DNA from: Pseudomonadota bacterium
GTDB lineage: Bacteria > Myxococcota_A > Polyangia > JAAYKL01
Assembly: GCA_023229365.1 (NCBI GenBank)
Contig: JALNZK010000002.1
Coordinates: forward strand, 318,343-340,072
Direction: 5' to 3'
Length of the DNA stretch: 21,730 nucleotides
This document shows positions 3,102-16,508 of the stretch, piece by piece. The notes beneath the pieces are model-generated. The model ran no database searches, was not told the DNA's origin, and worked only from the letters and a program-made list of their open reading frames with translations. A program made the translations under genes and the position numbers. The stretch's first letter is position 1; each line of letters opens with the position of its first letter.

Positions 3102-3635
3102 ATGGAACCAACAAAACGAGAATATCAGGTTATTTTGGGCACTATTATGGGCGGCTCATCAATCATCCGGCCTAAAAAGGGAAAGCATTGTTATTTGTCC
3201 ATGCGAGACAAAAGAGCCAATTGGCTAGAGTTCAAAGCAGATCAATTAGCTCGATACGCCTCGCCAGAGCCTTTTACGATTGAAAAAACAAATCGTTGGC
3301 ACTCTTTGGCATATCCTATTTTCGATGAATTTAGAGAAAAGTTTTATAATCACAAAAAACGTTGTGTCGATATCGAAAGCCTTACTTTCTGGGACGTGGG
3401 ATTGTCTATTTGGTTTGGAGATGTGGGCAAGTTCGAAAATGGACAAGTTATATTAAACACTCACATCTGGGGCGAAAAAGGATCAGAAACCCTGGCAAAA
3501 TATTTCGAATATTGTCAATGGCCTGCTGAAATATTTAAAGACCGCACCTATTACCGTTTACGATTGAACAGAGAGGCTTCTGTGCATTTTATGAATACGG
3601 TTAGCCCTCATTTGCCATTCCCATTGACTCAATAA
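3102..3635 (+). CDS. LAGLIDADG-family homing endonuclease (free-standing; first catalytic motif degenerate)
   Basis: Two LAGLIDADG-like motifs: ILGTIMGGSSI and LSIWFGDVGKF. Family-typical surrounding pattern: CYLSMRDKRANWLEFKADQL, FREKFYNHKKR, ILNTH, YYRLRLNREAS. Confidence 0.75.
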   Translation: MEPTKREYQVILGTIMGGSSIIRPKKGKHCYLSMRDKRANWLEFKADQLARYASPEPFTIEKTNRWHSLAYPIFDEFREKFYNHKKRCVDIESLTFWDVGLSIWFGDVGKFENGQVILNTHIWGEKGSETLAKYFEYCQWPAEIFKDRTYYRLRLNREASVHFMNTVSPHLPFPLTQ

Positions 3636-3671: not shown

Positions 3672-3956
3672 ATGATTAAATTTTTAAAACTAATTACCGG
3701 CGAAGACACATTGGCAGAAGTTACAGAAGAAACCGAATTGCATTATGTTTTAAAGAACCCAATGCGATTTATACCCACCGAACAGGGCATAGGTATAGCC
3801 CCCTTCGCAATGTTTGTGAAAAAGGGCTCTACAATCACAATTGATAAAGATAAGGTTATTTTTGCCGCCGATCCAGAAGATGAAATAGCCAATGTTTATA
3901 ATGAAAAATATGGCTCTGGGATCGTTGTGCCACCCTCAAGCATACAATTACCATGA
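3672..3956 (+). CDS. Hypothetical protein (94 aa)
   Basis: Strong SD (tggaggattacaaATG). The stop overlaps the next start (ATGA). Confidence 0.6.
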   Translation: MIKFLKLITGEDTLAEVTEETELHYVLKNPMRFIPTEQGIGIAPFAMFVKKGSTITIDKDKVIFAADPEDEIANVYNEKYGSGIVVPPSSIQLP

Positions 3957-4543
3957 CAATGCCACATTTAATGAATTGCCCACATTCACCTGATGGGTGG
4001 TGCCTTGATTGCGTCAGTAAACAAGGCAAGCTTTTGCTTGAAATTGACCAAGCCATACAAGACCCGGATAAATTTCTGGCGATGGTTGCTAATCGTGGCC
4101 GACCATTAATCGGCGTTTGCGTTTGCATTTGTCGTCGTGAACCATCCAGCGGCAAAGTTCTTTTGCACAAAAGAAAAGGAAAGCACGCTCCTGGCACATG
4201 GGCATTCCCTGGCGGGCATATGGAAAAATGGGAATCCTTTGAAGGAGTTGTTCGTAGAGAACTAGAAGAAGAAGCAGGGCCAGATATAGAAATTGATAAT
4301 TTGCAATTTTGGACTGTTGCCAATACTCGATTTCATGATGAAGACAAGCATTATGTTGTTCTTTTTATTATGGCTGATTGGGTATCTGGCGAGCCAAAGA
4401 TTATGGAGCCAGAAAAATGTGAATGCTGGGAATGGTTTGATTGGAATGATCTTCCTTCACCACTGATGATGGGGATACAAGATATTGTTGATCGTAAACT
4501 GAGCCCTTTTGACTATGGAGGCGAACACGAAACATTATGCTAG
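3953..4543 (+). CDS. Nudix hydrolase with a Cys-rich N-terminal extension
   Basis: Nudix box GGHMEKWESFEGVVRRELEEEAG (GX5EX7REUXEEXGU). N-terminal CPHSPDGWCLDC cluster. Confidence 0.9.
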   Translation: MTMPHLMNCPHSPDGWCLDCVSKQGKLLLEIDQAIQDPDKFLAMVANRGRPLIGVCVCICRREPSSGKVLLHKRKGKHAPGTWAFPGGHMEKWESFEGVVRRELEEEAGPDIEIDNLQFWTVANTRFHDEDKHYVVLFIMADWVSGEPKIMEPEKCECWEWFDWNDLPSPLMMGIQDIVDRKLSPFDYGGEHETLC

Positions 4544-5109
4544 AAGTAGAAGCTAAATTCATTGTGGATAGTTTTGATTTATTGGAAGCCAAATACCAAT
4601 TTGATGGCCCCGTGTTACAAAGAGATATATATTATCAGCATCCCTCTCGTGATTTTATGAAAACTGGAGAGTGGTTCCGTGTGCGAAGAATTTTTAAGGG
4701 CATTCCCTGTGCGGAAAACCTCGGGTGCGAAGAAATTCATCTGTGTCACAAAGGATCAAATCAAGGCTCATCTGATGTTAAAAGTCGCAGAGAGATAGAA
4801 TTTTCTGTGCCTATGGACATAATTGAACTTTTGCAAATCCTTGATTTTGCAGAATTGATACGAGTGGAAAAATACCGCCGATCAGCCGTGGTTACACCAA
4901 CTAACGATAGTGGCGAACCCACCTTTACCATAACATTAGATGAAGTTTTGGGATTGGGAAAATATGTAGAAATTGAAATGCTGGTTCTCAAAGAAGAATT
5001 TAAAGCAGGAGCAATTGAAGCCATTAATGACATAGCCAAAAAACTGGGACTCACCCAGCCAGAGAAACACGGATATGCTAAATTAATGCTGAAAAAAGAG
5101 AAAAAATGA
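4537..5109 (+). CDS. CYTH-domain protein (triphosphate tunnel metalloenzyme / CyaB-ThTPase family)
   Basis: N-terminal MLEVEAKF carries the ExExK signature. Length and basic/acidic strand pattern fit CYTH. Overlaps its neighbours by 7 nt and 4 nt. Confidence 0.8.
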   Translation: MLEVEAKFIVDSFDLLEAKYQFDGPVLQRDIYYQHPSRDFMKTGEWFRVRRIFKGIPCAENLGCEEIHLCHKGSNQGSSDVKSRREIEFSVPMDIIELLQILDFAELIRVEKYRRSAVVTPTNDSGEPTFTITLDEVLGLGKYVEIEMLVLKEEFKAGAIEAINDIAKKLGLTQPEKHGYAKLMLKKEKK

Positions 5110-5288
5110 TGCCTAATTACGAATATCAGTGCGATACTTGTGAACACAAGTTTGAAATATTTCAACACATGAATGATAAGCCCATTAAAATTTGCCCTAA
5201 GTGCGGCAAAAAAGTCCATCGATTGATTACTGGCGGAACTGGCTTTATTCTTAAAGGAACCGGCTGGACTCCAAAAGGAAATAAATGA
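5106..5288 (+). CDS. FmdB-family zinc-ribbon protein
   Basis: MPNYEYQCDTCEHKFEIFQHMNDKPIKICPKCG matches the (Y/F)EYxCxxC...CPxCG pattern of FmdB-type putative regulatory Zn ribbons. Confidence 0.85.
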   Translation: MMPNYEYQCDTCEHKFEIFQHMNDKPIKICPKCGKKVHRLITGGTGFILKGTGWTPKGNK

Positions 5289-5539
5289 GCACTTATGTCC
5301 ATAACGCCATTGTTGAGAATGGCTTACAATCTGAGTTTGCTTATGGAGATAAGCTTGCGAAAAGACACGGATTTGAAGATGGACCGCTGCATCGACGCCG
5401 ACAAGGAACTATTGAGCAATTCGATGAGTGGATTGCCAATTGTTTAAAGGATGTTGAAGAAGGGAAAATGTGCCCTGTTAGAGCTAGAAAAATAATTGAA
5501 AGATGGTGGACACTTCGAGAAAAAAAGGCAAATAGATAA
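5285..5539 (+). CDS. Hypothetical protein (84 aa)
   Basis: ATGA overlap with the upstream gene. Protein-like composition. Antisense ORFs 5341..5565 and 5444..5641 are judged spurious. Confidence 0.6.
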   Translation: MSTYVHNAIVENGLQSEFAYGDKLAKRHGFEDGPLHRRRQGTIEQFDEWIANCLKDVEEGKMCPVRARKIIERWWTLREKKANR

Positions 5540-7232: not shown

Positions 7233-7877
7233 CTAGTGCATTGCACTAATGTGTAAGTCACGCAGGGTAATGGACCATGATTGATGCCGTGGCGATGATG
7301 CCAAGAAGAAATCAAGGATTTCCTCTGAGGCTGCCGCTACTGTCAACATGATGATGTTACGAGCCAAGGGATAGTCGCAAACGTCGCCACCGCTGTCCTT
7401 TGGCACCTTGTAGCGATCATCCCATACAACCTCGCCATAATCTTCAAATAATCCAGTGTGCAGACATGGAATCTTCTTTGCCCGGCAATGGGTTTGAACA
7501 ATTTGCCGTGCAGCATTATTATCAAAACAATCCAACACCAATGCTGAGCCACGCAGCATTTTATCCACGGTAGCGGCGGTCAATTCCTTGTCCACGGTGT
7601 CAATTTCAACACCAATGTTGCCAAACACCTTCTGTTTGGCGGCGGCAACTTTCAAAGCTCCAACATCCCGCTCATTCCAAAACTGGGTGTTTAGATTATG
7701 AGTATCGACACGATCTTTGTCAATACCACGGAGATTGGCAAATCCTTGTCGAGAAAGATTGTCAAGCAAATTGCTACCCAGGGCTCCTACACCACAAATG
7801 GTGATTAGACCTTGCAATTTCTTGGCATAATCCTTGCCTCGGTAAATTTCTTCATGATGGAATTTATTCGTTGCCAT
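7233..7877 (-). CDS. ThiF/MoeB/E1-like adenylyltransferase (short, 214 aa)
   Basis: Rossmann Gly loop ICGVGALGSNL. GIDKDRVDTHNLNTQ (compare the ThiF/E1 D.D.V..SNL.RQ pattern). LDCFDNNAARQ. Cys in GGDVCDYP. SD ggaggaagaaaATG. Confidence 0.88.
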   Translation of the reverse strand: MATNKFHHEEIYRGKDYAKKLQGLITICGVGALGSNLLDNLSRQGFANLRGIDKDRVDTHNLNTQFWNERDVGALKVAAAKQKVFGNIGVEIDTVDKELTAATVDKMLRGSALVLDCFDNNAARQIVQTHCRAKKIPCLHTGLFEDYGEVVWDDRYKVPKDSGGDVCDYPLARNIIMLTVAAASEEILDFFLASSPRHQSWSITLRDLHISAMH

Positions 7878-8097: not shown

Positions 8098-8661
8098 TCA
8101 CTTGGGTTTGTCTGTTTCAATTTCATTCGCCACCTCTTCGCTCTCTAGGAGAGCACCCAAATTAATTGCAGAGTCTTGATCCCAATCAATGGCATGCCCC
8201 CCAAGCTCAACCTCTTCATCAAATAATGTCAAGTCATCCTCCACAACGACATTAGGTGTTGCCAAGCCATAGCAAGCCAGTGGCTTTTTGGGTGTAATTC
8301 CTACAATTAGTTGCCCAAAGCTCTTTAGAGTACGAATGGGAATTGGAGGTTGTTCATCGCTGTAATACAAATAACCCTTGAGCCCATTGACTCCTTCGAT
8401 CAAACAAACGAGAGGCTTGCCAAACGACAACACCCACTGTGCCATTGTAGCATCATCCCGTGGGCTTGGGGAGGCGATCATTCCGGGGTGCGTGTGATAA
8501 AACCCAACCACATCCCCATATTTTTCTTCACGATCCATGACCCACTTATATGGAAAATCCACGGAGCCAGGGTGCCCTTCGCTTTCGTGCGAAACATGAC
8601 CCCACCACATTCTCCTGTGATTTCCGCCCGTCAAAATCCACGATTGTTCATTTTGTCTCAT
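8098..8661 (-). CDS. JAB/MPN (JAMM) metalloisopeptidase
   Basis: Complete JAMM motif HTHPGMIASPSPRD (HxHx7Sx2D) with upstream acidic residues. The ATG directly abuts the upstream stop (TAAATG). Confidence 0.9.
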   Translation of the reverse strand: MRQNEQSWILTGGNHRRMWWGHVSHESEGHPGSVDFPYKWVMDREEKYGDVVGFYHTHPGMIASPSPRDDATMAQWVLSFGKPLVCLIEGVNGLKGYLYYSDEQPPIPIRTLKSFGQLIVGITPKKPLACYGLATPNVVVEDDLTLFDEEVELGGHAIDWDQDSAINLGALLESEEVANEIETDKPK

Positions 8662-9177
8662 TTATTTTTCCCTTAGTCGTTTTATTGCTTCTTGACGTTG
8701 TTCTCGGGTTTGTTCTTCTAGTTCTTGAGTAAACAATTTCCCGCTCATGTAATATTCTGTACCCCAAGCTGGGCACATTTTGTGTAATTCAGGACGACCA
8801 CAACCAGGGCACACACAATCTTTTGACTCTTCTATGTCCCAGTCCATTGACTCTACAATTTCTTTCACATTCTCTTCGATAAATTTCTCACAAGCCTCTG
8901 GACCAATAGCTTCTCGCAATGCAGCAAACGGATTGCCTGTCGCTGCCCAGCGTGCCTCTTCTTCTTCCCAACACTCGTTTTGTCCACACTCTTTAACCTG
9001 ATCCCACAACAAAGCAACGGATGGGTGTTTGTCTTCTTCCCAATCACCACGTTCCAAAAATGCACAATAGCCGTCTTCTTGTTCAGCGTGGTCGGGGTGC
9101 TTGCTCCAATAAGGGCAAATGCCATTTGTATCATAGCAATATATTCCCTTCGGAATTAAACTCGGGTCTTTATTCAT
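8662..9177 (-). CDS. Cys/Trp/Glu-rich hypothetical protein (171 aa), probable metal-binding
   Basis: Start set at the ATG at 9177 (MNKDPS...), which forms an ATGA overlap with the GIY-YIG stop. Cys clusters: YCYDTNGICPYW...GYCAF and CVCPGCG...MCPAWG. Confidence 0.6.
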   Translation of the reverse strand: MNKDPSLIPKGIYCYDTNGICPYWSKHPDHAEQEDGYCAFLERGDWEEDKHPSVALLWDQVKECGQNECWEEEEARWAATGNPFAALREAIGPEACEKFIEENVKEIVESMDWDIEESKDCVCPGCGRPELHKMCPAWGTEYYMSGKLFTQELEEQTREQRQEAIKRLREK

Positions 9178-9893
9178 AATGTTTTCTTTTCCAACACTTT
9201 CCAATTTTTGTAATGTGCGATTTTGCCAGCAGCTACACTCCACATATGCCCAGAATTCAAATTGTGTTCCCTTGAAAACTGCTCCAAATTACTTGTCTCG
9301 AATACTTCTCCATCTGGCGATGCTATTTTGTATGCGAATTTCAATTTTTTGTTTCGCATTTTTTCTTTTGACTTATCCGAATACTTTCTTCCTGTGGCTG
9401 ATTTGGCAATTTTGTTTTTGTGTTCCTCTGTAAGCGTTTTGCCAGTGTTAAATAGCGATAACTTCTTTTTTGTTTTATTGCTTACTTTGTGTCCTAAATG
9501 ACTCGATCTAAGCTTTTTAATTGTTGCTTGGGTTACTTTTTTCCCTTTGTTGCCGATGGATATTTTGCGTTTAACCTCCTCAGATATTACGCCTCGGGCA
9601 TTTCCAAGTTTTAAATTATAACCATTTGGAGAAAGGGTTTTTAATTCACAGCCCCAATACACTTCCCTGGCATCTATTTCTTCTTGTGTGCCATTTAATT
9701 TTTCTAACACCACAATCTTAAAATGTTCTGGTCCGTATTTTCGAATGGCAAGGACAATCGGCATTAGTTTGGTGTTATTCCACCTTGCCTCCGCACAGTG
9801 TCTTTTGAACCTTTCTTCTGCCGTTTTCCAAGTTTGCCCAACATAGACCTTTGCATTAAGATCATTTATTATTTTGTATATAATTGCTTCCAT
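9174..9893 (-). CDS. GIY-YIG homing endonuclease (I-TevI/Seg-like) with NUMOD3-type repeats
   Basis: IIYKIINDLNAKVYVGQT (GIY...YIG), R/H/E core, NGYN. C-terminal repeated S.GNKGKK / SSHLGHKVS / NTGKTLTEEHKNKI DNA-binding motifs. Confidence 0.9.
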   Translation of the reverse strand: MEAIIYKIINDLNAKVYVGQTWKTAEERFKRHCAEARWNNTKLMPIVLAIRKYGPEHFKIVVLEKLNGTQEEIDAREVYWGCELKTLSPNGYNLKLGNARGVISEEVKRKISIGNKGKKVTQATIKKLRSSHLGHKVSNKTKKKLSLFNTGKTLTEEHKNKIAKSATGRKYSDKSKEKMRNKKLKFAYKIASPDGEVFETSNLEQFSREHNLNSGHMWSVAAGKIAHYKNWKVLEKKTL

Positions 9894-9945: not shown

Positions 9946-10401
9946 TTATAATTTGTCAAATTGGTCTCTGATCTTCATTAGAAGTTTTCCAAGATGGTTT
10001 TCCCCAACTCCGTTGCATACCCCAAAAAACGTGTCGTGCCACCAATTTCCTTCTACTAATTCCGCCTTGCCAGTGGCAAGAAGCTGATTGCATAATTGTG
10101 GATCGGAGAATTTTTGCACAAGCAAATCTTCCATAATCCCTAAATTAATATTTTGCCAATCGGGTCGTTGGTGTCCAGCTTTTTTGAATACAGCCGCAAG
10201 CTTCTTTGCTTTTCCAGGGGTAATAGCGTCTTGAATTTGCTTACGCAATGCCGGGTCTAAAAATTTAGCAGCTTGGTAAGCGTGTTCGGTGGAAATATAT
10301 TTTTCACCATCCAAAACTACCGGCGTGGACAGTATGGCAAAATTCGACAAATACCTGTATTCACCATCAAATGAATCAATTTTTGTTTGCTTGTCATTCA
10401 T
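9946..10401 (-). CDS. NADAR (YbiA/DUF1768) domain protein
   Basis: FDGEYRYLSNF, YISTEHAYQAAKF, GNWWHDTFFG and GENHLGKLLMKIR match the NADAR signature. Confidence 0.88.
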   Translation of the reverse strand: MNDKQTKIDSFDGEYRYLSNFAILSTPVVLDGEKYISTEHAYQAAKFLDPALRKQIQDAITPGKAKKLAAVFKKAGHQRPDWQNINLGIMEDLLVQKFSDPQLCNQLLATGKAELVEGNWWHDTFFGVCNGVGENHLGKLLMKIRDQFDKL

Positions 10402-13066: not shown

Positions 13067-13097
13067 TAAGAAAAGCCCTGGGGACAATCCCCAGGGC
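13066..13097 (-). terminator. Rho-independent terminator after the Ro60-like gene
   Basis: 10-bp stem gccctgggga(13075-13084)/tccccagggc(13088-13097), 3-nt loop, then ttttcttattt on the minus strand. It lies 26 nt past the stop at 13123. Confidence 0.7.
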
Positions 13098-13122
13098 TTC
13101 CCAGACAAGTTCGCAAAGCTCA

Positions 13123-14691
13123 CTACGCAACTTTTCTCTTCGGCAAAGGCCAACTCATGATTTCCATGAGCAAGTCAAGCTTACTGGGCTTGCACAGGAA
13201 TTTCACCAGTCCAGGCAAGCTGTAGTAGTCGCCGGTAAATTGCCAAGCGTCTACTTCGATGCCTTTGACTCGACCTTCTTGCTCCAATTGATCCGTAGCA
13301 TTAGGAGTCTTGACAATGCAAATGTTGGGGAATGCATTCAAGGCTTGACAGTATTTTTGATAAATGTCAAAGAACTTGGGAGCAGTATTTTCCCCTTCAT
13401 CCGTTACCAAAATGATCTGTTCGACCATGTATTTCTTTTGTAGCATAAACTGCAAGCCAACGCCGCAGGAAGTCCAACCGCTTGCACGGATGCCTTCAAA
13501 TGCTTTCTCCCAAGCTGCCAAGTCTTTTCCTTGGCTAGTGATGGGATAGGCGATTGTATCTTGAGCATACGCATACAAAGGAACACCATCCTCCATAACC
13601 GTAGACAATAGGGAGCCAATTCGCTTGCCCAATTCAATGGTAGCGGCTTGAGAACCCGACTTGTCCACAAACAAAGCCGTGGGGCGACTGATACGACCCT
13701 TGGACTTAATTTGTTGGTCAGCAACGGCTTCCAATTGTTGCTTTACTTCATCCGAAACTCCAGGTGCCGCCTTGACGGCTTCCAAGGATTTCAATGCAGC
13801 CATTCGCTTATCGCCCTTGGCCACAACAAGTTTTTCCTCAATCAATTGCTTGAGATCGGGGTTGTCGAACACGCCACGCTTTTTCAAGCTGCCGATGCTG
13901 TTGACCAACTCTTGCGAAGTCATTACTTCCAACAAAGCCGCAATAACAGGCGGTGTCATGGATTCGATTACCGTACTGGCAATCCGGTACGGAATTTTAT
14001 TTTCCACGATCACTCGGGCTTGGTCAGTCGGTGAAGTTGCCTTGGCCAACTCCTTGATTAGGAACGCTTTGGAATCAGCAGGCGGCTTATCATCGAACAA
14101 CACGGCTTGAGCCCGGTCGGTCGGCTTGCGGTGTCCGAAAGCATACAAACTCTTCATATATTTTCGAGCACCAACGCAGACACTATCGAACCAATCTTTA
14201 TCCAATTCTCGCTCTTGCAGATAACGATTGATTTCCGTCATTACGGAATTGGGCAATTGTCGGAACAAGCCCGTTTTGACTTTCTTGGCAGGAGCAGCCG
14301 GTTGTGCCGGTGCGGCAGCAACTCTACGACCCCGAACCATGCGTGCGGGTGCCGGTGCGGCAGCCTTCGGCTTTCGTTCGGTGATATAGTTGCCCAAAAT
14401 GAACTTCAATACCCGTGTCAATTGATAGGGCGGAAGCTCACGCAACATGGCCAAACCAACTTCTCGGTGCCCGTCAAACTTGGACAGACACAAAGAAATA
14501 ATAAACATTTCTTTGTGGTCACGAATTTCGCCGGTATCATTATACCAAGCCGCCAATTGCGAATAGAACCGAGGATCATCGGTAATCATTCGCTGGTGTT
14601 CTGGATAAATAGCGGCCAGATCACGGTGAGGCGTGGTCAATAGAGTGTTGAGAATTCGGAGTCGCACATCTTGTTCGGTATTTTCGTTCAT
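13123..14691 (-). CDS. Ro60/Rsr-like protein: helical-repeat (TROVE-like) N-terminal region plus C-terminal vWA domain (522 aa)
   Basis: C-terminal vWA with MIDAS FVDKSGSQ (DxSxS), ASGWTSCG and ILVTDEGEN, in the same order as human Ro60 VDVSASM / GGTDCS / IVFTDNET (recalled). The N-terminal helical segments RDHKEMFIISLCLS and REVGLAMLRELPPYQLTRVLKFI parallel Ro60 KQEPMLFALAICSQ and [24 protein letters not shown]. Total length is close to Ro60 (~540 aa). Start moved to 14691 (MNENTEQ, SD aaagggatatgaaATG) because the ATG at 14727 lies inside a structured RNA element. Ala/Pro/Arg-rich insert KPKAAAPAPARMVRGRRVAAAPAQPAAPAKK. Confidence 0.65.
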   Translation of the reverse strand: MNENTEQDVRLRILNTLLTTPHRDLAAIYPEHQRMITDDPRFYSQLAAWYNDTGEIRDHKEMFIISLCLSKFDGHREVGLAMLRELPPYQLTRVLKFILGNYITERKPKAAAPAPARMVRGRRVAAAPAQPAAPAKKVKTGLFRQLPNSVMTEINRYLQERELDKDWFDSVCVGARKYMKSLYAFGHRKPTDRAQAVLFDDKPPADSKAFLIKELAKATSPTDQARVIVENKIPYRIASTVIESMTPPVIAALLEVMTSQELVNSIGSLKKRGVFDNPDLKQLIEEKLVVAKGDKRMAALKSLEAVKAAPGVSDEVKQQLEAVADQQIKSKGRISRPTALFVDKSGSQAATIELGKRIGSLLSTVMEDGVPLYAYAQDTIAYPITSQGKDLAAWEKAFEGIRASGWTSCGVGLQFMLQKKYMVEQIILVTDEGENTAPKFFDIYQKYCQALNAFPNICIVKTPNATDQLEQEGRVKGIEVDAWQFTGDYYSLPGLVKFLCKPSKLDLLMEIMSWPLPKRKVA

Positions 14692-14716
14692 TTCATATCC
14701 CTTTCTAAATAAAAAT

Positions 14717-14797
14717 AGCCCATCCAAGTCTGGTCAGCTTTGATTGGAAACGATATGGAAGTTTCTGTTTGTAAGCTGGGCCGGTATGGGATGGGCT
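14717..14797 (-). ncRNA. Y-RNA-like module 0 (minimal: conserved stem motif closed by a ~35-nt insert, no tRNA-like domain)
   Basis: 9-bp terminal stem agcccatcc/ggatgggct. Carries both conserved strands (minus sense 5' ..CCCAUACC..CAGCUUACAAACAG and 3' GCUGACCAGACUUGGAUGGG). Followed on the minus strand by AUUUUUAUUU. Confidence 0.55.
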
Positions 14798-14815
14798 TGT
14801 TCTGTTGTTTTGTTT

Positions 14816-15046
14816 TTAGCCGAAAACTGCCTCCGGTCGGAGTGTAAGGGTGTTAGTTTCACCATTACGATCAACAGCAAAAGCCCGTAGCTTCCCTTGA
14901 GGGATGCCTAGCCAATCGGCGGCAGCATTGCGGATATCGGCATCCGAGCTATTGTCGCCAATATTCAGTTCCGCCAAGGGAACGTCGTAAGACCTTCCTT
15001 CGACTCGAACGTGCAGCATGTTTTCAAGTTGGTTTTCGTTGTCCAT
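14816..15046 (-). CDS. Small beta-grasp/ubiquitin-like candidate (76 aa) ending in Gly
   Basis: Strong SD (aaggagaaattacgATG) and its own promoter. Ubiquitin size. Predicted strand-strand-helix-strand pattern (MLHVRVEGRSYDVPL / SDADIRNAAADWLGI / LTLRPEAVFG). The terminal residue is Gly, directly before the stop. Confidence 0.4.
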   Translation of the reverse strand: MDNENQLENMLHVRVEGRSYDVPLAELNIGDNSSDADIRNAAADWLGIPQGKLRAFAVDRNGETNTLTLRPEAVFG

Positions 15047-15089
15047 CGTAATTTCTCCTTATATCGTTCGTTCGTCTTTCACTTTCCCT

Positions 15090-15117
15090 ATTATACTTCA
15101 GAAATTTGAGTTGTAAA
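15090..15117 (-). promoter_or_regulatory. Sigma70-like promoter (TTTACA-N16-TATAAT) for the 76-aa ORF and Ro60-like gene
   Basis: Minus strand: tttaca(15117-15112)-16 nt-tataat(15095-15090), ~45 nt upstream of the ATG at 15046. Confidence 0.6.
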
Positions 15118-15127
15118 CAAGAAAAAA

Positions 15128-15253
15128 TCCGTCCAAGTTACAAAAACTGTTTTTGGTAAACAATGCAGGAATTGAACCAGCATTCTTCAGTTTTCAAGAC
15201 TGACGCTCAACCATTGAGCTAATTGTTTGTAAGTTTTAGTGGTATGGGACGGA
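15128..15253 (-). ncRNA. Y-RNA-like module 1: conserved stem motif flanking a complete tRNA
   Basis: Terminal stem tccgtcc(15128-15134)/ggacgga(15247-15253). The conserved 5' and 3' motif strands bracket the tRNA at 15154-15228. Confidence 0.6.
15154..15228 (-). tRNA. tRNA or tRNA-like, anticodon UGA, class I (short variable arm), CCA encoded
   Basis: Minus sense: AAACAAT-TA-GCTC-AATGGTT-GAGC-G-TCAGT-CTTGAAA-ACTGA-AGAAT-GCTGG-TTCAATT-CCTGC-ATTGTTT-A-CCA. U8, A14, G18G19, U33 and the T-loop TTCAA are present. One T-stem mismatch. A Ser-type anticodon without the long variable arm is anomalous. Confidence 0.55.
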
Positions 15254-15256
15254 AAG

Positions 15257-15385
15257 TGGAGGGTGTTGGATTCGAACCAACATTTTTTCGTTTTCAGTGA
15301 AAAAAGTTACCTTTTGTTTGTATGTCTCTCAGGTGTGGGACAATTGCTTGTCCAAGTTTGGGAAACTGAACGTTTTTAACCCTCC
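15257..15385 (-). ncRNA. tRNA-like RNA (anticodon loop CUGAAAA, GAA/Phe-type) with the conserved stem-loop inserted in the D-loop (module 2)
   Basis: 7-bp acceptor GGAGGGT/ACCCTCC. T arm GTTGG-TTCGAAT-CCAAC. Anticodon arm present. The D region is replaced by ...GTTCAGTT[motif hairpin, loop AGCAAUU]...AAGGTAAC. No CCA. Confidence 0.55.
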
Positions 15386-15395
15386 AAAGTATCAG

Positions 15396-15522
15396 CGGGG
15401 AAGATGGGATTCGAACCCATAATTTTTCCTTAACAGGGAAACTTTTACCAATTGTTTGTATGTCTCTCAGGTGTGGGATGGTCGCCCATCCAAGTTTGGG
15501 AAACTGAACTTCTAACTTCCCC
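15396..15522 (-). ncRNA. tRNA-like RNA (anticodon loop CUGUUAA, GUU/Asn-type) with the conserved stem-loop inserted in the D-loop (module 3)
   Basis: Perfect acceptor GGGGAAG/CTTCCCC. T arm ATGGG-TTCGAAT-CCCAT. Anticodon stem TTTCC/GGAAA. D region ...GTTCAGTT[hairpin closed by GGAUGGG-CGA-CCAUCC]...TTGGTAAAAG. Confidence 0.55.
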
Positions 15523-15612
15523 ATGTGCCCGGTTTATAATTCTCTGCCTGCAACCGGAAACCCGGCAGAAAAGCCTCCAGTTATTGGTTTATCCCAAGAG
15601 GCGAGTAATCAG

Positions 15613-15738
15613 ACCCGGTGGTAGGAGTCGCACCTACAATCTTTTCCTTAGGATGGAAACGCTGTTTGTACGTCTCTCAGGTTTGGGATAATTTCTTATC
15701 CGAGTTTGGGAAACTGTTTGCTGTTTAGCTTCACCGGG
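15613..15738 (-). ncRNA. tRNA-like RNA (anticodon loop AUCCUAA, CCU/Arg-type) with the conserved stem-loop inserted in the D region (module 4)
   Basis: Acceptor CCCGGTG/CACCGGG. Anticodon stem TTTCC/GGAAA. Non-canonical T-loop TGCGACT (G at position 55). 3-bp D-stem GCT/AGC enclosing the motif hairpin (loop GAAA). Confidence 0.5.
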
Positions 15739-15743
15739 ATATT

Positions 15744-15902
15744 CATAAGGCAAACATTTGATCGTCCAAGTCGAAGAAACTGTTTTTTGCAACAATGTTG
15801 GATTCGCACCAACTACCGAAACTTTATGGAAGTTTTGCTCTACTGATGAGCTAATTGTTTGTAAGTTCCGTCAGTATGGGACGATCAAATGTTTGCCTTA
15901 TG
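15744..15902 (-). ncRNA. Y-RNA-like module 5: 24-bp perfect terminal stem plus conserved motif flanking a degenerate tRNA-like domain (CAU loop)
   Basis: cataaggcaaacatttgatcgtcc(15744-15767) is the exact reverse complement of 15879-15902. The inner tRNA-like domain (15789-15860) has a D-loop ATCAGTA lacking GG, anticodon loop UCCAUAA (C33) and T-loop TGCGAAT. Confidence 0.6.
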
Positions 15903-15913
15903 TTGATTTTACC

Positions 15914-16090
15914 GACGCAAGCAAGTGTTGGCCCGTCCAAGTCGAAAAAGCTGTTTCACATAGTGACAGTTTAATAGACTGTTGCCTTTACCATTAGGCT
16001 AAAACACATTTTGGCGTGTTTGTTGGATTCGAACCAACAGATTGTTTGTAAGCTCTGTCTGTGTGGGACGAGCAAACACTTGCCTGCGTC
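15914..16090 (-). ncRNA. Y-RNA-like module 6 with a circularly permuted tRNA-like domain
   Basis: Long imperfect terminal stem 15914-15938/16066-16090. Minus-sense order: motif 5' strand, T arm (GTTGG-TTCGAAT-CCAAC, 16022-16038), loop-capped helix AAACAC/GTGTTT (16002-16021), D-like arm with GG (15984-15999), ACAGT-CTATTAA-ACTGT (15966-15982), motif 3' strand. Confidence 0.6.
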
Positions 16091-16092
16091 AA

Positions 16093-16260
16093 CATCATCA
16101 AGCTTCCGTCTGTCCAAGTTGAAGAAGCTGTTCAACTTTTGACAGTTCCAATTACTGGTGCCTGACCGTTAGGCTACATTCCTTGCGGAATGATGGGAGT
16201 CGAACCCACTTATTTGTTTGTAAGCTCCGTCTGTATGGGACAGACGGAAGCTTGATGATG
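16093..16260 (-). ncRNA. Y-RNA-like module 7 with a circularly permuted tRNA-like domain and a GNRA-capped acceptor-like helix
   Basis: 23-bp perfect terminal stem 16093-16115/16238-16260. T arm 16193-16209. CATTCC-GCAA-GGAATG hairpin 16177-16192. D-like GCCT-AACGGTC-AGGC 16160-16174. CAGT-AATTGGA-ACTG 16143-16157. Confidence 0.6.
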
Positions 16261-16295
16261 TTTACAACTCAAATTGTCAAAGAACACAAAATTGG

Positions 16296-16384
16296 CTATC
16301 CAAGTTCATAGAGGGGAGAACATTCAAATCTCCCCCTTCAAGCGGGGGAGAAAGTCGTTTGTAACCTCTATAGGTTTGGGATAG
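16296..16384 (-). ncRNA. Y-RNA-like module 8: conserved motif enclosing a GC-rich hairpin instead of a tRNA-like domain
   Basis: Terminal stem ctatcc/ggatag. Internal helix AUAGAGG/CCUCUAU. Insert hairpin TCTCCCCC-GCTTGAA-GGGGGAGA. Confidence 0.5.
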
Positions 16385-16475
16385 CAAGGGGAGCCGTTGG
16401 AGTCGAACCAACAAAACCACAAGCCCCGTCTTTCAACACTATACGCTGAATACCGTATTGCGGTTCATTCAGTAT
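16385..16475 (-). ncRNA. 5' leader of the RNA array: stem-loop plus a tRNA T-arm/minihelix-like element
   Basis: Minus sense from the predicted TSS: hairpin CTGAAT-GA-ACCG-CAATA-CGGT-ATTCAG (about 16447-16473). Then GGGG...GTTGG-TTCGACT-CCAAC(16396-16412)...CCCC. Confidence 0.4.
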
Positions 16476-16480
16476 GATCT

Positions 16481-16508
16481 ATTATACGCCTTTTTTATTC
16501 CCTGTCAA
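16481..16508 (-). promoter_or_regulatory. Consensus sigma70 promoter (TTGACA-N16-TATAAT) driving the RNA array
   Basis: Minus strand: ttgaca(16508-16503)-16 nt-tataat(16486-16481). It points into 16475..15128, where no protein-coding potential is apparent. Confidence 0.65.

Follow-up and report, generated by a model that had tools for sequence, protein, structure and literature searches.

What kind of RNA is made by a gene that has the acceptor stem, anticodon arm and T arm of a transfer RNA (tRNA), but a long closed hairpin in place of the D loop? Three such genes lie at 15257-15738 of the stretch analysed here (the window, a whole of 21,730 nt from contig JALNZK010000002.1), on the minus strand, on which all modules of the surrounding RNA array are read, and 0.6-1.0 kb upstream of a Ro60-like coding sequence (CDS) of the same strand. 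A preliminary description had presented them as tRNA-like genes with Phe-, Asn- and Arg-type anticodon loops, and had proposed that they were either tRNA mimics tethered to Ro60 or precursors in need of an excision step. The comparisons described below argue that these units (M2, M3 and M4) are real small-RNA genes, conserved as part of a phage Ro60 system, and between the two proposals they disfavour excision. The parts of the units are as follows.

15257-15385, minus strand: M2, D-type tRNA/Y-RNA chimera of 129 nt with a Phe-type GAA anticodon and A as discriminator; matched by the full-length model R2 (see below) over positions 1-136 with 94.8 bits
15265-15281, minus strand: T arm of M2, GUUGG-UUCGAAU-CCAAC, from the parse of the unit
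15286-15302, minus strand: anticodon arm of M2, UUUCA-CUGAAAA-CGAAA, from the parse of the unit
15303-15315, minus strand: putative 3' half of the D loop of M2, AAAAGGUAACUUU, with the analogue of G18-G19, from the parse and the GG/U55 association
15316-15369, minus strand: closed Ro-type hairpin of M2; 67.1 bits with the hairpin model R1 (see below), fold z = -3.04
15396-15522, minus strand: M3, D-type chimera of 127 nt with an Asn-type GUU anticodon and G as discriminator; matched by R2 over positions 1-136 with 96.9 bits
15404-15420, minus strand: T arm of M3, AUGGG-UUCGAAU-CCCAU, from the parse of the unit
15425-15441, minus strand: anticodon arm of M3, UUUCC-CUGUUAA-GGAAA, from the parse of the unit
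15454-15507, minus strand: closed Ro-type hairpin of M3, GGAUGG-GCGA-CCAUCC; R1 64.7 bits, fold z = -2.95
15613-15738, minus strand: M4, D-type chimera of 126 nt with an Arg-type CCU anticodon and U as discriminator; matched by R2 over positions 1-136 with 105 bits
15621-15659, minus strand: anticodon arm of M4, UUUCC-AUCCUAA-GGAAA, its variable loop AGAUU and its T arm GUAGG-UGCGACU-CCUAC, from the parse of the unit
15664-15717, minus strand: closed Ro-type hairpin of M4, GGAUAA-GAAA-UUAUCC; R1 62.5 bits, fold z = -2.95
15316-15322, 15454-15460 and 15664-15670, minus strand: examples of the UACAAAC junction motif, found in every module of the array

The parse bears out the coordinates, acceptor stems, anticodon loops and T arms of the preliminary description. 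The acceptor stems are perfect over 7 bp (GGAGGGU/ACCCUCC followed by A in M2, GGGGAAG/CUUCCCC followed by G in M3, and CCCGGUG/CACCGGG followed by U in M4), with the discriminator unpaired in each case. The variable loop has 4-5 nt, and a T arm of 5 bp and 7 nt stands flush with the 3' acceptor strand. U33 is present in all three units, as had been claimed, but the anticodon stem of 5 bp claimed along with it is found only in M3 and M4, whereas that of M2 consists of 4 bp plus an A31.C39 mismatch, or of an alternative 7-bp stem. Between position 13 and the anticodon arm, a two-helix hairpin replaces the D loop in each unit; its conserved core is of 54 nt rather than the ~65 nt first proposed. 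The hairpin of M2 has two helices, one basal and one apical (GGACAA/UUGUCC), an internal loop in which a C is bulged, a GCAA tetraloop and UACAAAC at its 3' side. The hairpin is followed by AAAAGGUAAC in M2 and by AAUUGGUAAAAG in M3.

When folded with RNAfold, M2 gave a minimum-energy structure in which no helix of the model is missing (z = -3.05), M4 folded with z = -4.9, and in M3 the centroid fold contained the acceptor stem, both hairpin helices and the T arm. The isolated hairpins of the three units fold alike, with two helices, an internal loop and a GNRA tetraloop, at z values around -3. ARAGORN, a check that the preliminary description had suggested, called a tRNA in none of M2, M3 or M4, and the Rfam tRNA model (RF00005) gave partial matches to M2, M3 and M4 (25.3, 26.6 and 16.9 bits, respectively) with the D arm deleted, below the gathering score of 29. 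The units share with canonical tRNAs (RF00005, those of phages included) the acceptor stem, an anticodon arm with 7-nt loop, U33 and purine 37, the T arm, the discriminator, the 4-5-nt variable loop and the 3' trailer, and differ from them by the structured 54-nt insert in the D loop, which leaves 65-72 nt between the D-stem positions where a D arm has a 3-4-bp stem and a 7-11-nt loop, and by scores below the thresholds of the tRNA finders.

Conservation of this architecture was assayed in 12 viral, 80 metagenomic and 80 GTDB genome loci plus a few contigs with exact matches, in which the assignment of contigs as viral or cellular is approximate. Thirty-five closed hairpins aligned nearly free of gaps, 25 of them with a GNRA apical loop, and 90.8% of the cells of this alignment were paired, compared to 72.7% in shuffles and 34-48% when the partner strand was slid; changes on both sides were found in 111 cells, a count that, like those below, comes from related sequences. 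A covariance model of the closed hairpin only (R1) recovered 70 distinct closed hairpins, located upstream of the Ro60-like gene, and its 156 matches were all on the strand of that gene except for a weak one (24.3 bits, in locus L134). R1 also matched the junctions between the 3' half of an open module of the array and the 5' half of the next (15857-15954, 16044-16131 and 16216-16317), and therefore the closed hairpin corresponds to the open stem in permuted order.

A T arm was found within 75 nt downstream of 56 of the 70 distinct closed hairpins, and in 54 of these 56 a perfect 7/7 acceptor pairing spanned the unit, between the 7 nt that follow the T stem and a 7-mer on the 5' side of the hairpin, compared to a mean of 4.0 and a maximum of 10 in shuffles. 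The search was anchored on the hairpin alone, so that 7/7 pairing was not presupposed, as it had been in an earlier parse that required it and was thus circular. A full-length model of 136 positions (R2) was built from 14 units from outside the window, a regular subset, as a MAFFT alignment of 40 full-length units had misaligned the acceptor and anticodon registers. In the R2 alignment 96.4% of the cells were paired and 26 of 34 pairs changed on both sides. As judged from these alignments, all helices of the chimera family covary. R2, without any sequence of the window, recovered M4, M3 and M2 from end to end (E values between 1e-20 and 3e-23), and found about 60 D-type units with scores of at least 60 bits. 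A single match at E<=1e-10 was obtained with it in 0.89 Mb of viral DNA, although this control is not fully independent, as the DNA had been fetched with a loose hairpin pattern (CTTGGA..TCCCA..ACAAAC in viral contigs, 117 loci, with a real unit in 1 of 100 checked) and was kept as an imperfect control.

The three units are part of an array of nine RNA modules (M0-M8, 14717-16385) on one strand, which is arranged with its signals and neighbouring genes in the following 5' to 3' order, M4, M3 and M2 being placed between M5 and M1.

16481-16508, minus strand: sigma-70-type consensus promoter-like site upstream of the array, TTGACA-16-TATAAT, 12 of 12 matches, from the sequence
16295-16385, minus strand: M8, open stem with a simple hairpin insert, from the fold
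16087-16266, minus strand: M7, open stem around a domain that resembles classical YrlA, with T arm, closed acceptor hairpin and D arm, from a partial Rfam YrlA match of 27.7 bits and the fold
15920-16084, minus strand: M6, open stem around a permuted tRNA-like domain (T arm, closed acceptor hairpin, D arm, anticodon arm), from Rfam and the fold
15746-15900, minus strand: M5, open Y-type stem around a tRNA with anticodon CAU, from ARAGORN, Rfam and the fold
15128-15253, minus strand: M1, open Y-type stem around a complete tRNA with anticodon UGA and a short variable loop, from ARAGORN, Rfam (69.9 bits) and the fold
15090-15117, minus strand: second promoter-like site, near the 76-aa open reading frame (ORF), from the sequence
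14816-15046, minus strand: conserved 76-aa ORF with C-terminus ...RPEAVFG, between the array and the Ro60-like gene, from synteny
14717-14797, minus strand: M0, open stem holding a small hairpin, located 3' of the small ORF and ahead of the Ro60-like gene, from the fold
13123-14691, minus strand: predicted divergent Ro60 orthologue of 522 aa, TROVE ring plus vWA domain, from homologues, profile and predicted fold
13070-13102, minus strand: intrinsic-terminator-like hairpin after the Ro60-like gene, from the sequence

A bulged helix resembling that of Y RNAs (5' GUCC[C]A.AC with ACUU-GGAC 3') is common to all nine modules. Its motif, ACUUGGA...UCCC(A/C)NAC, and the UACAAAC/AAC junction are the same in the hairpins of M2-M4 and in the six open modules. 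In M2-M4 this helix is circularly permuted, GNRA-capped and internal, with the tetraloop linking what would be the free ends of a normal Y RNA. Helix and tRNA-like parts are joined in three ways within the array: the helix surrounds a whole tRNA through its acceptor (M1, M5), surrounds a YrlA-like permuted domain (M6, M7), or lies inside an open-ended tRNA (M2-M4). Across loci and in all three topologies, UACAAAC opposite AAC forms an invariant single-stranded junction flanking the basal helix. The family consensus at the base of the hairpin is AAC-AG(C/U)UU.

The identity of the Ro60-like protein was drawn from its homologues, a profile and the fold, because direct family searches gave nothing: the 522-aa protein itself had no match in Pfam (TROVE model included), PHROGs or NCBIfam. 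Its homologues match Pfam vWA_Ro60, and a profile of the family matches the Ro60 of Thermus phage phiLo in PDB (9KOP/9L5Y). The AlphaFold2 model has a predicted local distance difference test score (pLDDT) of 81, and its 13 best Foldseek matches in PDB are all Ro60/Rsr proteins, aligned over the full length (around 550 columns) with template modelling scores of 0.51-0.61. By these measures, the protein is a divergent Ro60 with a predicted HEAT-repeat ring and a C-terminal vWA domain. Comparison with homologues sets its start at the ATG at 14691, whereas the mechanical ORF start, a TTG at 14727, would overlap M0 (14691-14727).

How the hairpin is set into the tRNA body was analysed at the D stem, its 5' strand (positions 10-12) being counted from the acceptor stem and its 3' strand (positions 23-25) from the anticodon arm, each with a fixed offset. 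A D stem closing over the insert was found in 26 of 46 units, compared to 8.5 expected from shuffles (maximum 16), and five covarying types were detected (GCU/AGC, GUU/AAC, GUC/GAC, GCC/GGC and GCA/UGC). Across the family the two strands are 59-76 nt apart, and the D stem has 3 bp or is absent. Among the units of the window the stem is full only in M4 (G15729-C15728-U15727 with A15663-G15662-C15661, that is, G10 C11 U12 with A23 G24 C25), reaches two of three pairs in M2 and is lacking in M3. In loci L156 and L008, UACAAAC is changed to ACAAGC exactly where AGC must be the 3' strand of the D stem. In one relative the D arm is complete and the hairpin stands at position 26. A mini-hairpin GCU-AAAC-AGC in M4 was considered as its real D arm and disfavoured, as the orthologue in L001 loses the mini-hairpin and keeps the distal AGC.

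GG(U)AA stands immediately 3' of the insert in 31 of 46 units, and a few units carry it 5' of the insert. The D-loop GG is present with U55 (T loop UUCGA) and absent with G55 (UGCRA) in the proportions 38/1/4/11 (Fisher 1.6e-7, on sequences that are phylogenetically non-independent). Such an association is the signature expected if G18/G19 still dock on U55/C56. By their T loops, M2 and M3 (UUCGAAU) are placed in the GG-docking class and M4 (G55) in the class without the D-loop GG. These data answer the question left by the preliminary description, whether the GG could still contact the T loop, in the affirmative for M2 and M3. Its structural reading of a stem grafted into the D-loop region of a tRNA scaffold likewise holds at the family level, through the covarying D stems, the shared motifs and the Ro60 gene, and (A/U)(A/U)GGUAA behaves as the 3' half of the D loop, as had been proposed. 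In contrast, GUUCAGUU, taken for the 5' half, was rejected, since it aligns with the conserved base of the hairpin and is for the most part that base. A simple insertion into a normal tRNA is also too simple a description, as deletion of the hairpin in silico makes only 13 of 54 units callable by ARAGORN.

The units also carry signals of tRNA processing. The discriminator is followed by CU in 48 of 54 D-type units and in 53 of 76 ordinary tRNAs of the same loci, and as the trailers ('N73-CU') are alike, the same maturation by RNase P and 3'-end/CCA enzymes as for the ordinary tRNAs of these phages is inferred. CCA is encoded in 6 of 10 nested tRNAs of related loci; in the window, M1 has it after the discriminator, together with the conserved AAACAAU as its 5' acceptor strand. 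The units are packed 3-10 nt apart. Their anticodons comprise CAU, GAA, GUU, UUU, UCU, UCG, CCU, ACG, GUA, UUG, UGA, UCC, CCA, GCA, AUU, CUA and UCA.

Among known RNAs, the nearest in function are the YrlA RNAs of bacteria and phages (RF02553; Chen et al. 2014, PMC4201824), for which a crystal structure is given in bioRxiv 10.1101/312249. Y RNAs tether Ro60 to effectors, and the effector module of YrlA is a tRNA mimic (PMC4201824; bioRxiv 10.1101/312249); in vertebrates the Y RNA helix contacted by Ro60 is the bulged helix GGUCCGA, and YrlA RNAs carry a GNCGAAN0-1G motif near the 5' end (PMC4201824). As with YrlA, the genes adjoin a Ro60 orthologue in the same orientation and join a bulged helix of the Ro60 type, as one module, to a tRNA-like module in which a UUCGA T loop and a D-loop GG form the elbow, and M6 and M7 of the array have exactly the YrlA layout. 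However, YrlA forms its Ro60 stem from its own 5' and 3' ends, closes its acceptor as a hairpin and lacks an anticodon loop, whereas M2-M4 have a tetraloop-closed Ro stem inside the D loop, an open acceptor and a full anticodon arm, show GUCCC(A/C)NAC in place of GNCGAAN0-1G plus the additional UACAAAC junction, and occur in arrays of several units with different anticodons. The Rfam YrlA model had no match in 15257-15738 even at E<=10, and M7 was its only match in the window. The YrlA of Mycobacterium smegmatis (PMC4201824) is similar in being a Ro60-bound tRNA mimic with a 7-bp acceptor, cleaved by RNase P and provided with CCA in vivo, and with a free tRNA-like 3' end, but it acquires its open end by cleavage of a closed loop into a two-piece RNA, whereas the genes of M2-M4 are in one piece and open-ended, with the Ro site internal. 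Phage phiLo (PMC12135203; 9KOP, 9L5Y), whose Ro60 is the best match of the window protein in both sequence and fold, has Y-like RNAs (Yrl1 and Yrl2) upstream of the gene, but these are described as open stem-bulge-stem RNAs with a CGAA motif, and no tRNA chimeras or arrays are reported (PMC12135203).

M2-M4 fit the definition of neither YrlA nor tRNA, and are best described, from their sequences, as a new topological variant of Ro60-associated tRNA-mimic RNAs. No description of such chimeras was found in the searchable literature, the coverage of which is incomplete, so that an earlier mention is possible. The same helices in another order are also found in two-piece transfer-messenger RNA (tmRNA) and in the permuted tRNA genes of Cyanidioschyzon, in which the tRNA or tmRNA itself is permuted and resolved by processing; in M2-M4, by contrast, the permutation affects the protein-binding Y stem with respect to the tRNA joined to it, and the array combines three types of connection (acceptor, variable region and D loop).

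The above results suggest that M2-M4 are end-processed, isoacceptor-specific tRNA mimics tethered to Ro60, with a near-complete tRNA body and a circularly permuted Y-RNA stem, a reading to which we assign a probability of about 60%. The array would be transcribed as a single precursor, from which RNase P and the 3' tRNA-processing and CCA-adding machinery would release the individual units. The phage Ro60 would bind the internal hairpin, by analogy with Ro60 on the bulged helix of Y RNA. In M2 and M3 the D-loop GG would dock on the T loop and thus place Ro60 at the tRNA elbow, and the acceptor end and the anticodon loop would stay exposed as the effector module. The mimics would then bind proteins that recognise tRNA (synthetases, end-processing or repair enzymes, or host anticodon nucleases), without ribosomal decoding, which is disfavoured because Ser and Tyr anticodons are found on bodies with short variable loops, because A8 occurs and because U33 or the whole anticodon loop is missing in part of the units. 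As three junction geometries coexist in one array, tethering rather than a precise architecture is suggested.

Several points weigh against this reading. The Ro60-like protein is only 10-14% identical to the solved Ro60 structures, and because of this its mode of RNA binding could differ. The YrlA motif GNCGAAN0-1G is absent from the hairpin family of M2-M4. The covariation counts and the Fisher test overstate independence, because the compared sequences are related. The three-dimensional fold of M2 and M3 is uncertain because of the lacking D stem. Discriminators fit Met (7/7 A), Lys (4/4 A) and Asn (4/5 G), though not Arg (7/9 U) or Tyr, and where they match they are as compatible with charging as with mimicry. 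In around 80% of the units the anticodon loop is canonical, a feature of no obvious use to a pure scaffold. Finally, the specific partner, be it a decoy target, a repair enzyme or a synthetase, is speculation.

A first alternative is that the units are working phage tRNAs that are processed, CCA-tailed, aminoacylated and used in translation, with the insert as a handle by which Ro60 would stabilise them, check their quality or, while they are off the ribosome, shield them against tRNA-directed defences of the host. Their perfect acceptor stems starting with G1-C72, the C/U/A/A found at positions 32/33/37/38 in about 80% of the units, the discriminators that match the Met, Lys, Asn and Gly identities, and the 3' trailers identical to those of the ordinary tRNAs of the phages all agree with this. 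So does the position of units directly after ordinary tRNA arrays in L003 and L004, the maintenance of isoacceptor-like orthologues between phages whose Ro60 proteins are around 50% identical (for example GGAGGG(G/U) with GAA in the window, L003 and L202), and a relative in L001 (8312-8438) that passes the Rfam tRNA threshold with 50.6 bits. However, the tRNA elbow contacts the ribosome at the L1 stalk, L5 and the A-site finger, so that the insert, with or without a ring of 60 kDa, should clash with it, and we know of no functional tRNA with a helix of about 54 nt at this site. Ser (UGA) and Tyr (GUA) anticodons on class-I bodies, A8 in 17 of 46 units, a residue other than U33 in 9 of 46, an A34 'AUU' anticodon in two units and U73 in seven of nine Arg-type units are likewise at odds with decoding, as are the missing D stem of M2 and M3, the units (around six) without an anticodon loop and several units with another structure in place of the anticodon arm, for example a UUCG hairpin. 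We thus regard translation by these units as unlikely. Similarly doubtful is a combined possibility in which the chimeras would be CCA-ended, chargeable, isoacceptor-specific tRNAs with a Ro60 ring on the elbow, used by large phages either as a parallel tRNA pool protected against host anticodon nucleases or as baits by which tRNA-targeting defence enzymes, or the ends of damaged tRNAs, are delivered to an exonuclease or repair machine associated with Ro60.

A second explanation is that the hairpin binds another factor, such as the 76-aa protein or a host factor, or is a structural or processing element of the polycistronic precursor, its link to Ro60 being indirect. The absence of GNCGAA (the motif of PMC4201824), an invariant UACAAAC/AAC junction without counterpart in the described Ro60 sites, and a conserved small ORF always beside the Ro60-like gene would be compatible with it. 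But the helix has the layout that defines the Ro60 site of Y RNAs, GUCC-[bulged C]-A with U-GGAC as compared to the vertebrate GGUCCGA (PMC4201824), it is the only element common to all nine modules beside the Ro60 gene, and the R1 matches keep almost without exception to the strand of that gene, with the closed hairpins upstream of it. This explanation is therefore considered improbable.

Excision of the hairpin as an intervening sequence by an endonuclease and a ligase, to leave ordinary tRNAs of ~76 nt, is the least probable option: although the insert is discrete and within a loop, archaeal tRNAs can have D-loop introns and 13 of 54 relatives are called by ARAGORN after its deletion, the other 41 are then not recognisable as tRNAs and M2 and M3 would be without D stem, the same conserved motifs are constitutive in the open modules, where an intron is impossible, selection on the structure of the insert is strong, UACAAAC itself forms the 3' D-stem strand in some units (the ACAAGC variants of L156 and L008), no group I or other intron family was found in Rfam at E<=10, and the junction is by inspection a long asymmetric internal loop and not a bulge-helix-bulge, a motif for which no dedicated search was made.

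The chimeras show that a Ro60 site and a tRNA mimic can be joined in at least three topologies within one array (acceptor stem, variable region and D loop), which suggests that tethering outweighs fixed geometry, and that a full tRNA, its acceptor end free and its anticodon specific, can serve as the mimic. It is phages, and not their hosts, that seem to have multiplied the units into panels of isoacceptor look-alikes. Their setting may thus be a conflict directed at tRNA, or tRNA quality control. Two long-standing questions are touched by this: the binding partner of the tRNA-like half of bacterial Y RNAs, and the role of Ro60 in bacteria and phages. Should the chimeras be chargeable ribonucleoprotein-tRNAs, Ro60 would take part directly, and in a programmable way, in the contest of phage and host for tRNA. 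The genes are also of concern to annotation, since they are overlooked by standard tRNA and Rfam searches.

With regard to distribution, 11 of the 12 viral loci carry D-type chimeras, as do about 11 of 80 metagenomic loci and one of 80 GTDB loci, the last on a contig of 23 kb. The design thus recurs in many large phages and looks like an elaboration on the phage side. The Ro60-like protein has more than 2000 homologues, the closest of them 95% identical. The family, which standard family models miss, is common with its small partner ORF in chromosomes of Planctomycetota, Chloroflexota, Abditibacteriota and cyanobacteria (L213-L292). Several chromosomal loci have an Rfam tRNA just upstream of the Ro60-like gene; in L285, the one such locus that was read, these are ordinary tRNAs without a Ro-type stem.

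The small ORF is found beside the Ro60-like gene both in phages and in one complete chromosome of Abditibacteriota, with further copies at 4238-4460 of L285, 2631-2836 of L237 and 3569-3802 of L013. Its C-terminal RPEAVFG is invariant, followed by zero or one extra residue in most homologues. The AlphaFold2 model is beta-beta-alpha-beta-beta, and the best PDB fold matches are ubiquitin-like domains, although not significant (E 0.09-0.3). Genes for a ThiF/E1-like and a Prok-JAB protein lie 5-7 kb from the Ro60-like gene (7233-7877 and 8098-8661, both on the minus strand) and recur on the contigs that encode the two closest homologues of the Ro60-like protein. With the small ORF, which ends in glycine, they resemble a ubiquitin-like or sulphur-carrier set, possibly connected with the Ro60 system. 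A 335-aa gene that follows the Ro60-like gene was considered as an effector and dropped, as it had no PDB or family match and was not syntenic in L013.

The neighbourhood is phage-like, with endonucleases of the LAGLIDADG and GIY-YIG types, NADAR, NUDIX and CYTH proteins and a collagen-like protein of 782 aa, and the closest GenBank relative is an uncultured phage of 595 kb. The following genes were identified by family matches.

3102-3635, plus strand: homing endonuclease gene, LAGLIDADG
9174-9893, minus strand: homing endonuclease gene, GIY-YIG
9946-10401: NADAR
3953-4543: NUDIX
4537-5109: CYTH

Some minor observations concern the array itself. In M1 and M5 the conserved ACAAAC doubles as the 5' acceptor strand (AAACAAU), and in M1 the A73-CCA is followed by an A-rich linker. 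M6 has a full anticodon arm with the loop CUAUUAA, and the loop of its acceptor hairpin, GCCAAAA, is an encoded mimic of discriminator-CCA. A minihelix of acceptor and T arm (GGGGCU...GUUGG-UUCGACU-CCAAC...GGCUCC) is found at 16388-16427, minus strand, just 5' of M8 and soon after the promoter-like site. The 90-nt spacer between M4 and M3 (15523-15612, minus strand) holds the hairpin CUGCCGGGUUUCCGGUUGCAGGCAG and no recognisable module; a spacer of similar size at 2713-2828 of L013 is unrelated to it.

Other loci showed further variants. In the phage LR756511 of 595 kb (L001), a Ro-stem module with an insert of about 300 nt lies at 7240-7560, minus strand, with no match in Rfam, and the same phage has a tRNA with an 8-nt anticodon loop and one with an insert of around 30 nt (7616-7690 and 5202-5303, respectively, both on the minus strand). 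D-type chimeras with anticodons for stop codons were detected at 112-247 of L015 and 3933-4053 of L163, both on the plus strand, with anticodons CUA (amber) and UCA (opal).

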